Source: a phage. Taken from it: a stretch of DNA of 64,000 bases. Under the pieces are notes generated by a model. The model was not told the origin of the DNA, did no database searches, and saw nothing but the letters and a program-made list of their open reading frames with translations. This document shows, in pieces, positions 57,122 to 59,145 of the stretch. The stretch's first letter is position 1, and each line of letters begins with the position of its first letter. A program made the position numbers and the translations under genes. The stretch lies in assembly GCA_018027755.1 (NCBI GenBank), contig GCA_018027755.1_4098.1; one strand, written 5' to 3'.

Positions 57122-57759
57122 TTAAACACATAGAGACAGGGGAAGCTCCTAGTGAACAACCTTTATGTACAGGCGAATTGTTAAAATTCAGCCTGGACAA
57201 ATGCGATCACTAGGATTCTCCCCAGGCTAAACCCCGTAATCATAGGTAGTCATAAGTAATCATATATAAACATTTATATGAGCACCGTAGAATCACAGAA
57301 TGATTATATATGATTCAGTACTGATTAGTATAGACAAGATTGCTCAAGAATGCACGGAAATGTGTGTGAATGATTCAGTACTGATATCCCACTAAGTAGG
57401 CAGAGGAAGTCTGCCGTACTTTGTAGTTTCCAAGCTCCTTTTCCATTTTGCAAATTACATCAAATGTAATCAAAAGTAATCACACAATGATTAGTACTGA
57501 ATTATTACTTTCACCTTAATTACAATTACCCTTTTACCCTTCGGGGTAAAATTCCATTACCCCTTGAGGCTCCAGCAAAAAGTTGGTTAGTACTCCATCC
57601 TAAATCTCGATCCTAAAAATTTTGGAGTACCTATGAAATAAAAGTTGGATCTTCGAAAGTTGAAATTTACGTTGGGACGTTTATGATTTGTGGGATATAA
57701 TGATGTTTGTAGTCGGGTAGTTCTCAAGAATATCAGTACTGAATGATGAAAGAAAGCTA

Positions 57760-57788
57760 TTGACTTTATGATTCAGTACTGTATAATG
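57760..57788 (+). promoter_or_regulatory. strong consensus promoter with no downstream ORF
   Basis: ttgactttatgattcagtactgtataat then gttttacat; the next ~1.3 kb has no credible ORF. Confidence 0.5.
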
Positions 57789-58149
57789 TTTTACATAGAG
57801 AGATGAGTTGCCGCAAACAATTCATTCACTCTACTTCCTGTCGTGAGACAGTACAGAAAGATAGTTCCTCCTATGGGTGGTACATCTTTTAGAACCTCTT
57901 TTTTCGTAATATGAACAGTACTGATATTAACAGAATGGTGTCAGTACTGATTTTAATTTAATGCATTATGCCACCAGCACAAGCTGGTGGATTCCCTCTA
58001 ACAGTATTCAGTACTACATGATGGTCTTCATCCTCCTAGGGTAACATAGTGAGGGCTATGATGGCAGTACTGAATACTCCCTTTCAAAAGATAGATCTAT
58101 GGTATAGTACTGACGGATTTTGGGCGTAGTTACCCTGGATGGATTTTGG

Positions 58150-58330
58150 GCGTAGATATGTCTAGCCCTCCAGAAGTCTGGAAGTAAAGATGGCTATCCA
58201 TCTAGACGGCTAAACGGCTAGATTTCTGGATGGCTGGATGGCTGGATGGCTGGATGGCTAGACGTTTGGACGGCTAAACGGCTAGATGGTTACACGTCTG
58301 GAAGTATAGACGGCTAAATCAAAATTTTAT
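58150..58330. repeat. iteron-like tandem repeats
   Basis: GGATGGCT x4 tandem (58231-58262) flanked by two copies of gacggctaaacggctagat, plus repeated ttttgggcgta. Confidence 0.6.
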
Positions 58331-58929
58331 TTTGTTTTTTCCAATAGTTCCCCTACCGCGTGGGGATAGTTTCCCCGCAGTATCTGGAGTTAGATTTTTC
58401 TGAATCTGGAATCATTATCTTATAAACTGGGGGCAATGTCAACGACCTGGTCGGATATTTTTAAAAATTTTTTCAGTACTGAATTTTGGGCGTAACTATG
58501 CACCCGGTGGGCTTGAGTCTTTCTCGACTTGATGGAACTATTATACAGTACTGAAAAAATAAAGCAATACCCTGGAAGCAAAAAAATTTTAATTAATTTG
58601 CTTGCTATCCTGGGCCGGACTATGGTACTATATTTCAGTACTGAGAAAGTGCGTTTGCCTGCTAGGGTGCGGGAGTGTATCCTTTTTTTATATCTTGAAT
58701 TTTGGGCGTAATTCCGCACCCCCTGGGGTTTCCGCTTTCTCGCGTCTATGTAGTAATTATACGCTTTTTCAGGATCAAGTCAATACCTAAAAACAAAATA
58801 ATTGAAAATAATTTAACGCGTTTAAACGGCCCGTAAAGCCCTGGAATGATTGGAATGGTGCAAATGTATAGCTTAGGTGTATTAATGCGTTAGAATGCGT
58901 CTGAGGCCGTTTTACGGGGTATAGGGATG

Positions 58930-59040
58930 ATTTAGTGGATTGATTCAGTACTGAATAATAGTACTCCTATATAGAAAGATAGTTCCCCTGGATTGATTCA
59001 GTACTGAATAATAGTTCCCCTATATAGAAAGAAAACTATT
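58930..59040. repeat. ~45-bp direct repeat (x2) containing the ATTCAGTACTGAAT palindrome
   Basis: gattcagtactgaataatagt.c.cctatatagaaaga appears twice in tandem. Confidence 0.55.
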
Positions 59041-59145
59041 TTAAAAGTATTTGTAGAAAGTACTTGCACAGTACTGAAAAAAGCGTATAATGTTTTACAT
59101 CGAGAGCGGGAACACTTCCCTACTCACTTTTAAGAGATTAAAACG

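Follow-up and report, generated by a model that had tools for sequence, protein, structure and literature searches.

We describe a gene-free stretch of about 2 kb, positions 57122-59145 of a 64,000-nt window of phage DNA (the window is the whole sequence analysed; it ends at 64000). The stretch taken as a whole is very probably the left boundary and non-coding leader of the ~21-kb direct terminal repeat (DTR) of its phage, a boundary that is already on record for close relatives. By sequence comparison the source phage is an Asteriusvirus, a ~350-kb jumbo coliphage of the Rak2-like group, the entire stretch showing 92-96% identity to known members. Matches to the stretch were found in 44 phage records. 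Coverage is at least 80%, at 87-96% identity, in 34 of these, and all 34 are ~350-kb jumbo phages of Asteriusvirus, including PBECO4, 121Q, phAPEC6, G17 and fEgEco12. A first-pass annotation made from the sequence alone had drawn attention to this stretch, and its observations were real, each listed feature being recovered in place. Of the four interpretations that it offered, a terminal-repeat boundary is strongly supported and a packaging site is supported too; a non-coding RNA (ncRNA) locus is plausible, and a replication origin is not supported.

The left chromosome end

The linear genome of phage fEgEco12 (374,733 bp) carries direct terminal repeats of 20,993 bp, detected by PhageTerm and borne out by restriction digests (PMC13070987). 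Its base 1 (AGTAGGCAGAGGAAGTCTGCC...) aligns to window position 57395, with 94.6% identity over 2.2 kb, and its right-hand repeat copy opens with this sequence too. In total seven independent GenBank records of relatives start or end at the base matching 57395: besides fEgEco12 these are, from different laboratories, vB_Ec-M-J, BAU.Micro_ELP-22, CRJP21, BF17 and E9.1, which start there, and G17, which ends there. The vB_Ec-M-J record annotates its repeat as 1-21,525. The repeat in the G17 record is 20,668 bp, equal to the PhageTerm value for the terminal repeat of Sharanji, and the G17 authors reported ~20 kb of redundancy from read coverage. The related phage CBB has a 22-kb repeat, backed by coverage and pulsed-field gel electrophoresis.

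Because these mapped or recorded ends align to 57395, the stretch straddles the left DTR boundary. The unique region ends with positions 57122-57394 (273 bp), and the repeat opens with ~1,750 bp that lack genes (57395-59145). Over the 100 bases around the junction, close relatives differ at one to three positions. Among the Asteriusvirus and Rak2-like DTRs (fEgEco12, Sharanji, G17, vB_Ec-M-J, Muenster, fENko-Kae01, CBB) the stretch finds orthologous sequence and early genes inside the repeat, and the mapped repeats, of about 20-22 kb, have the identical first base. The papers and records consulted on these repeats report their coordinates alone; the cross-genus cut motif with its inverted partner, the oriented Chi sites, the 8-bp array and the promoter-linked two-hairpin units presented below were not found described in them. 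In other Rak2-like genera, too, the first 1.3-1.8 kb of the repeat lack genes. Orthology shows the position of the terminus and, at the level of sequence, the conservation, motifs and covariation presented below. The result fixes the chromosome start of this phage group, which serves the correction of genome records, the engineering of 350-kb phages and the identification of the first-expressed genes present in two copies.

That the stretch holds no credible open reading frame (ORF), as first proposed, was borne out. Searches of its six longest ORFs against Pfam and PHROGs gave no match. The largest, a 99-aa minus-strand ORF, is disrupted by one-base indels in 121Q, A4 and EJP2, while a 29-aa ORF behind a promoter at 57760 has lost its ATG in JNE01 and EJP2; the latter was rejected as a gene, in line with the original remark that this promoter has no gene behind it. 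ORFs that lack family matches, are broken by indels or lose their start codon in relatives indicate that the stretch is non-coding. The careful annotations of 121Q and phAPEC6 also leave the stretch without genes, and so does that of G17 as far as its first repeat gene. That first gene is an early gene at 59146-59508.

The junction itself comprises two features:

57383..57394, plus strand: left half of the predicted terminase cut site, GATATCCCACTA^, from the record ends of seven relatives (CCACTA^ in RaK2 and GAP32)
57395..57415, plus strand: predicted first bases of the virion chromosome and DTR, AGTAGGCAGAGGAAGTCTGCC, from alignment to relatives' ends

A packaging (cut) site follows from a terminal-repeat boundary, and both the terminus and a cross-genus cut motif lie inside the stretch. 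CCACTA^ stands just outside the repeat in three genera, Asteriusvirus, RaK2 and GAP32, with junctions reading GATAT(C/G)CCACTA^AGTAGG in Asteriusvirus, GATATGCCACTA^AGTCCG in RaK2 and CCTTCCACTA^TATCTG in GAP32. The ends used for the different genera come from independently deposited records, including a PhageTerm determination for Muenster. On the inner side, RAAGTC occupies nt 12-17 from the end in five lineages (Asteriusvirus, Muenster, XbC2, pEa_SNUABM_12 and GAP32); in the source phage this is GAAGTC, and the AGTAGGCAGAGGAAGTCTGCC region also forms a 6-bp hairpin at 57399-57415.

The right DTR boundary of the source phage is expected at ~78,400, beyond the window, and right boundaries were read in relatives. 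In three genera (fEgEco12, vB_Ec-M-J, Muenster, fENko-Kae01) they read ...CT^TAGC..., that is, GCTA^AG on the opposite strand. Left and right boundaries therefore share one short motif, inverted relative to each other, and this recurrence fits one nuclease that would nick opposite strands ~21 kb apart. A conserved TGGACTAT / CGGACTGT motif was also seen ~35-45 nt inside the right boundary in three genera (20,940-20,960 in the fEgEco12 record).

From these comparisons we infer a nicking model, along with roles for the Chi sites, array, blocks and RNAs described below. Terminase would cut the concatemer between 57394 and 57395 (GATATCCCACTA^AGTAGGCAGAGGAAGTC) during packaging, leaving base 57395 as base 1 of the virion chromosome. 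Most likely, one nuclease would make two opposite-strand nicks ~21 kb apart; strand-displacement synthesis from the two 3′ ends would then duplicate the repeat, giving each daughter chromosome a full copy. Staggered nicks with strand displacement are the classical scheme for duplicating terminal repeats. The inverted putative nick motifs are testable cis-elements for the cutting and duplication of a 21-kb repeat.

Phage T7 has fixed ends, short-repeat arrays (SRL/SRR) by its terminal repeat, and staggered-nick resolution of concatemers. The stretch resembles it in fixed ends, a DTR, short-repeat arrays near the ends and host promoters near the entering end, and in both phages opposite-strand nicks with strand displacement would duplicate the repeat. 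Differences are that the repeat of T7 measures 160 bp, against 21 kb here, that its repeat unit is a different heptamer, and that the current T7 model invokes hairpin priming and the phage RNA polymerase, unlike our proposal.

Four further features lie on either side of the cut:

57185..57275, no strand assigned: conserved block outside the repeat, 91-92% identity across 15 genomes, with variable flanks
57466..57482, plus strand: a further pair of GTAATCA heptamers inside the cut, at 10-bp spacing (repeat search)
57570..57638, no strand assigned: block A, within the region's best-conserved part (98-99% identity among members of the genus)
57971..57990, no strand assigned: inverted Chi pair CCACCAGC-ACAA-GCTGGTGG, 577 nt from the predicted left end

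The outer block contains three GTA(A/G)TCA heptamers 10 bp apart (57236, 57246 and 57256), so that heptamers with 10-bp spacing occur on both sides of the cut; the stretch has five of them against 0.9 expected from the window density. Short repeated motifs that bind protein lie to either side of the specific cut in P1 pac and lambda cos. The stretch is alike, its cut being flanked by GTAATCA heptamers at about -160 to -130 and +70 to +90; terminase is a putative binder of these heptamers. P1 packages by headfuls from pac and lambda has cohesive ends; neither yields a long exact DTR, unlike the source phage.

Block A contains an inverted repeat, GTACTCCA (57590-57597) and TGGAGTAC (57623-57630), that encloses a pair of ATCCTAAA direct repeats. 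Its counterparts, with 93% identity in fENko-Kae01 and 82-89% in XbC2 and GAP32, lie 54-103 nt from the respective chromosome ends. The GTAATCA heptamers and block A, both next to the cut, would probably recruit the packaging enzyme. Conservation was measured against G17, 121Q and phAPEC6, and was also profiled per 25 nt. The non-coding DNA inside the repeat is 91.2% identical, rising to 98.6% in the first 306 bp (terminus and block A); 58326-58915 is 93.7% identical, and the neighbouring genes range from 60 to 97%. A long hairpin at 57134-57228 was rejected as a conserved structure, its left arm being replaced without compensation in fEgEco12, A4, JNE01 and ph0011.

Chi sites are over-represented, with six in the window against 0.5 expected, a count reached in none of 100 shuffles. 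The other four octamers lie outside the stretch, at 14820, 31148, 44860 and 45118. The strand whose 3′ terminus forms the nearby left end carries an exact GCTGGTGG at 57971-57978; this minus-strand copy is the one that RecBCD would read on entering there. The fENko-Kae01 genome has an identical pair 484-503 nt from its end. XbC2 and EJP2 have one copy each, in both cases the correctly oriented one, a pattern that speaks for Chi, and not a hairpin, as the target of selection. At the other end, fEgEco12 has two plus-strand Chi sites in active orientation, 1.4-1.6 kb inside the right end of its repeat. A Chi site 577 nt from the end would probably switch RecBCD from degradation to recombination as the linear DNA enters the cell, and oriented Chi at both ends provides testable elements for the survival of huge linear DNA against RecBCD at entry. 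Compared with canonical Chi, the stretch has the exact octamer in RecBCD-readable orientation, kept in relatives; it differs in being a palindromic pair able to form a hairpin, and in being missing from some relatives. The stems of this hairpin are identical between genomes, while its loop (57979-57982) reads either ACAA or the complement, TTGT, which looks like inversion of the loop at the palindrome.

Promoters and RNA-like units

The leader contains predicted promoters on both strands and hairpin units:

57760..57787, plus strand: sigma-70-type promoter TTGACT-16-TATAAT with CAGTACTG in its spacer, conserved in all 15 genomes including EJP2
57794..57960, plus strand: candidate non-coding transcript from the 57760 promoter, presumed to be transcribed (RNA fold z = -4.9)
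58336..58442, minus strand: block B′, with promoter TTGACA-17-GATAAT (58442 to 58414), 96-100% identity within the genus
58475..58567, minus strand: unit C2, promoter TTGCTT-16-TATAAT (58567 to 58540) followed by a two-hairpin RNA-like unit
58633..58690, plus strand: short unit with a terminator-like hairpin (58664-58690), converging on unit C1
58690..58783, minus strand: unit C1, promoter TTGACT-16-TATAAT (58783 to 58756) followed by a two-hairpin RNA-like unit

The promoter at 57760 had been called a perfect consensus; the site is present, but it matches at 11 of 12 positions and is near-consensus. The minus-strand sites at 58783 and 58442 also match at 11 of 12, and all three are predicted to be of sigma-70 type. 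The architecture of the 57760 promoter is that of the early promoters of the repeat. Its candidate transcript has four hairpins, among them CUGUC-GUGA-GACAG, and ends in a terminator-like site: a 14-bp hairpin formed by two CAGTACTG copies (57916-57949), then AUUUUAAUUU. The block B′ promoter is directed at the array and chromosome end; in 121Q both its hexamers are kept while the spacer has diverged, and the block is ~70% identical to fENko-Kae01 and RaK2. The hairpin at 58664-58690 is AGGGUGCG-GGAG-UGUAUCCU followed by U7, and its G.U pairs make it strand-specific. A passing resemblance of 58343-58372 to an Escherichia coli clustered regularly interspaced short palindromic repeat was dropped, the Rfam scan described below being empty.

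The units behind the minus-strand promoters at 58783 and 58567 are each ~55 nt long and share a layout in which CCC-NNN-GGGTGC separates a first small hairpin, whose loop is purine-rich, from a second hairpin downstream. In unit C2 a hairpin reads GUC-GAGAAA-GAC (CCCACCGGGUGC...). Unit C1 is among the best-conserved elements across genera, with 89-92% identity to fENko-Kae01, XbC2 and pEa_SNUABM_12; its conserved block, 58684-58786, is ~90% identical even where genomes share little other DNA. Further copies occur in the repeat at 60546 (plus), 60718 (minus) and 62645 (minus), and all the other genera have copies too. Within the early module the 60546 and 60718 units form a convergent pair, and the minus-strand unit at 62645 (62540-62645) faces a bidirectional terminator at 62515-62537.

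The suggestion of an ncRNA locus is plausible on account of these promoter-linked units, whose stems covary. The sequence of the first stem differs in nearly every copy while its pairing is kept. This hairpin is found in 13 of 15 distinct units, compared with 5.1 +/- 1.8 in shuffles, and none of 5000 shuffles reached 13. Across aligned units 87.5% of pair cells are paired, compared with 24-53% when the partners are slid. The second hairpin (hairpin 3 in the alignment) is 97% paired and has many G.U pairs; in the opposite strand these would not pair, which favours an RNA transcribed from the promoter strand.

Two highly expressed ncRNAs map to the DTR of the distantly related phage PA5oct (PMC7318152). 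The units resemble them in being non-coding and within a long DTR, with early activity here predicted. Small promoter-proximal hairpin RNAs are also known as lambda nut and HK022 put, and the units are like these in placing small purine-loop hairpins directly after early promoters. They have no sequence similarity to any of these RNAs and no Rfam match; they also differ in that several point to the chromosome end with no genes downstream, and that they form convergent pairs. In the proposed sequence of events the host-type promoters on both strands would fire once the DNA is inside the cell, yielding short structured ncRNAs ahead of the early host-takeover module.

As a tentative second explanation, the stretch may serve chiefly to make small regulatory RNAs, the presence of the terminus being incidental; the RNAs would act in trans, for example on host factors or defences, or in cis by antitermination. 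The near-consensus promoters conserved on both strands, the covarying stems with their strand-specific G.U pairs, the persistence of unit C1 across genera and the PA5oct precedent all speak for this. A covariance-model scan of 50000-64000 with Rfam 15, however, gave no match at E <= 1, the hairpins are short, and one unit only has a clear terminator. Units of the same family elsewhere in the repeat (60546-60720 and near 62620) mean that they are not special to the stretch, and the most conserved DNA, that of the terminus and block A, has no obvious sign of being transcribed. This explanation is compatible with that of a DTR boundary and leader; the dispute is over which function is primary.

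The 8-bp array

Between the candidate transcript and block B′ lie two sets of direct repeats:

58118..58154, plus strand: two GGATTTTGGGCGTAG units at 26-bp spacing, shortly before the array (repeat search)
58173..58316, plus strand: array of 18 units with 8-bp period and consensus GAnGnnTR (repeat search and cross-genome comparison)

The four tandem GGATGGCT copies first noticed here are present (4.2 perfect copies, 58226-58259), as are their two flanking GACGGCTAAACGGCTAGAT copies (58205 and 58269); the tandem copies sit within the longer 18-unit array, whose unit variants include GAAGTCTG, GATGGCTR, GACGGCTA and AACGGCTA. Array length differs between genomes in 8-bp steps. Recurrent units of ttttgggcgta type were likewise confirmed, TTTTGGGCGTA occurring at 58118, 58144, 58484 and 58700, a count of four that 1 of 100 shuffles reached. 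The two GGATTTTGGGCGTAG copies away from the array fall in the 3′ parts of units C2 and C1.

Block A, the array, block B′ and unit C are colinear in other Rak2-like genera, including genomes with PhageTerm-mapped ends. Arrays of the same type lie 660-700 nt from the end in other Rak2-like genera, so that in these jumbo myophages the array is within ~1 kb of mapped ends, and one array-type unit is only 12 nt from the cut. The type recurs close to record ends in some T5-like siphophages and one KP34-like podophage. It was found in T5-like Vibrio, Aeromonas and Providencia phages; in the Vibrio phage records Pontus, Luma, Dax, Chloris and Kronos it is 250-850 nt from the record start, and in KPV811 (Drulisvirus, KP34-like) it is 70-145 nt from the record end. 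In Pontus the array adjoins a copy of the DRD repeat of T5, while T5 itself has no 8-bp array.

We presume that this is a protein-binding array, and in the proposed mechanism it would probably bind a protein. A search of E. coli genomes with the array gave no match, so no host locus points to a binding factor, and a literature search with its sequence returned unrelated primer matches only. One speculative proposal, to which we assign a rather low probability, is that the array (TAGAYGGC / GAAGTCTR) is an end-region signal common to Rak2-like, some T5-like and one KP34-like phage, with one reader, possibly a host protein; in the jumbo phages it might serve a T5-like hold after the 21-kb repeat, in a two-step injection. 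The shared array and the promoter-linked small RNA units are testable elements for the function of conserved non-coding phage ends.

A CsrA sponge RNA acting through GGA motifs was one idea for the array; GGA is not conserved in the arrays of other phages. A single match to the IHF consensus at 58317 lies where the aligned region of other genera is not conserved. The equivalent non-coding leader in Klebsiella phages has no 8-bp array and instead has several Fur-box-like sequences (Muenster 787-1325, RaK2 2099-2635, fENko-Kae01 775-800), such as GAGAATGATAATGATTCTC with three mismatches to the consensus; within three mismatches of that consensus the window has no Fur box.

Could the array instead be a set of iterons for an initiator, with the nearby promoters supplying transcriptional activation or an RNA primer? 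Transcription-linked origins are known in T4 (R-loop origins) and T7 (primary origin). The array adjoins a T-rich tract, several strong promoters point into it, and GC skew changes sign near 57,000. We nevertheless consider an origin unlikely. The stretch has no DnaA boxes and no 40-mer of at least 85% A+T that could serve for unwinding; the units are 8 bp and tightly abutting, unlike phased iterons of 17-22 bp; and array copy number drifts freely among close relatives, RaK2 and Muenster having no array. No adjacent gene is recognisable as an initiator, the flanking genes having no recognisable function. The skew tracks the coding strand in most of the window. The occurrence of the same unit type near the record ends of unrelated DTR phages indicates an end function.

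A T5-like injection stop is a comparably weak candidate. Under it, the inner copy of the stretch, at the right-hand repeat, would halt entry after 21 kb, so that early genes act before the remaining 330 kb arrive. Repeat Region 3 of T5 is untranslated, repeat-rich and conserved above many of the repeat ORFs, and contains paired DnaA boxes, IRC/IRD inverted repeats and 15-bp DRD repeats (Davison, bioRxiv 10.1101/866236). T5 and the source phage both have a long DTR that carries the first-expressed genes. Like the T5 region, the stretch is a large untranslated repeat-rich sequence across a repeat/unique junction, which it overruns by 273 bp (~270 bp in T5); the array stands next to a DRD copy in Pontus, and the repeat carries an early module. 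Against this, the defining elements of the T5 region, its DnaA-box pairs and its IRC/IRD inverted repeats, are absent here, and T5 lacks the array. The T5 region is at the downstream edge of its repeat, after the pre-early genes, whereas ours is at the upstream edge, before the early genes, and has the 8-bp array, Chi pair and promoter-linked RNA-like units that the T5 region does not. Reading through the stretch, we did not see the T5 DRD sequence TGTGCAAATCCGACA.

That the stretch is decayed coding sequence or functionless spacer with repeats from slippage is hardly credible: some repeat copy numbers do vary between genomes, but identity of 91% across the genus and 98.6% at the terminus and block A, equal to or above that of flanking genes, excludes junk DNA, and ordered blocks are conserved across genera.

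Several observations weigh against the stretch being a DTR boundary and leader with the roles proposed. The terminus of the source phage is placed by orthologues and not by its own virion DNA, and some depositors may have copied their record starts from earlier records rather than mapped them. The divergent members A4 and EJP2 differ to the right of the cut. RaK2 and Muenster have no block A, 8-bp array or Chi pair, so these are not universal requirements. The shared core of the cut motif is short (CTA^), and the inverted-motif argument consequently rests on few bases. The Chi pair is also a GC-rich hairpin, annotated as a terminator in G17. The unit hairpins are only 3-5 bp, with weak and ambiguous single-sequence folds, so that comparison between units alone was informative, and for all promoters of the stretch we infer transcription from predicted sites.

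The early module and neighbouring genes

At its right edge the stretch passes into the early genes of the repeat through two features:

58936..59032, plus strand: two 44-nt copies, each with the 14-bp palindrome ATTCAGTACTGAAT, just upstream of the first early promoter
59060..59091, plus strand: first promoter of the early family, GTACTTGCA...GCGTATAAT, driving the gene at 59146-59508

The description of the region as preceding a promoter-rich early module, reminiscent of terminal-repeat host-takeover regions, holds: seven of the eight window copies of the early promoter family lie in 59060-63024, right after the stretch, and nearly every small gene there has its own GTACTTGCA...GCGTATAAT promoter. 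DTR genes of PA5oct are transcribed early (PMC7318152). Early mRNA leaders here open with GTTTTACAT and then a GGGGAA...TTCCCC hairpin (59100-59125, 59565-59585, 62715-62735), possibly a 5′ stabilising stem-loop.

What had been listed as a ~45-bp tandem repeat corresponds to the two 44-nt copies, which are 95% alike and 53 bp apart. Their number varies: copies are lost in several genomes, and JNE01 has an extra ~78 bp. With their ATTCAGTACTGAAT palindromes they may be operators.

Many CAGTACTG palindromes had been listed among the features of the stretch. There are indeed 13 in 57316-59076, at a density ~10-fold above the rest of the window, but the motif is genome-wide and not specific to the stretch; the window has 57 where ~1 is expected. 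No other 6-bp palindrome of the 64-kb window comes near its core AGTACT in over-representation, with 243 copies where 22-94 are expected. AGTACT is both genic and intergenic (for example 16985, 31639 and 62225), is denser after 53000, and is seen in other Rak2-like genera too. In promoters it stands just before the -35 (AGTACTTGCA) and the -10 (CAGTACTGTATAAT), and it also occurs free-standing as the 14-bp palindrome ATTCAGTACTGAAT. A SlmA-like site was one idea for AGTACT; the flanks of the palindrome differ from the SlmA consensus. Another recurring word in the region is TAGTTCCCC.

Upstream of the stretch the minus strand carries 12 tandem paralogous genes of about 370-450 aa each (38540-52874); the one that was scanned, 51708-52874, encodes RCC1-repeat (beta-propeller) domains. 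Between these and the stretch, plus-strand arrays of paralogous ~60-aa ORFs (phrog_11711) occupy 53000-57121, where GC skew is -0.13 to -0.22 and AT skew strongly positive despite the plus-strand genes; the GC skew of other plus-strand regions of the window is opposite. The sole tRNA gene of the window is that for tRNA-Thr (TGT), at 1519-1593.

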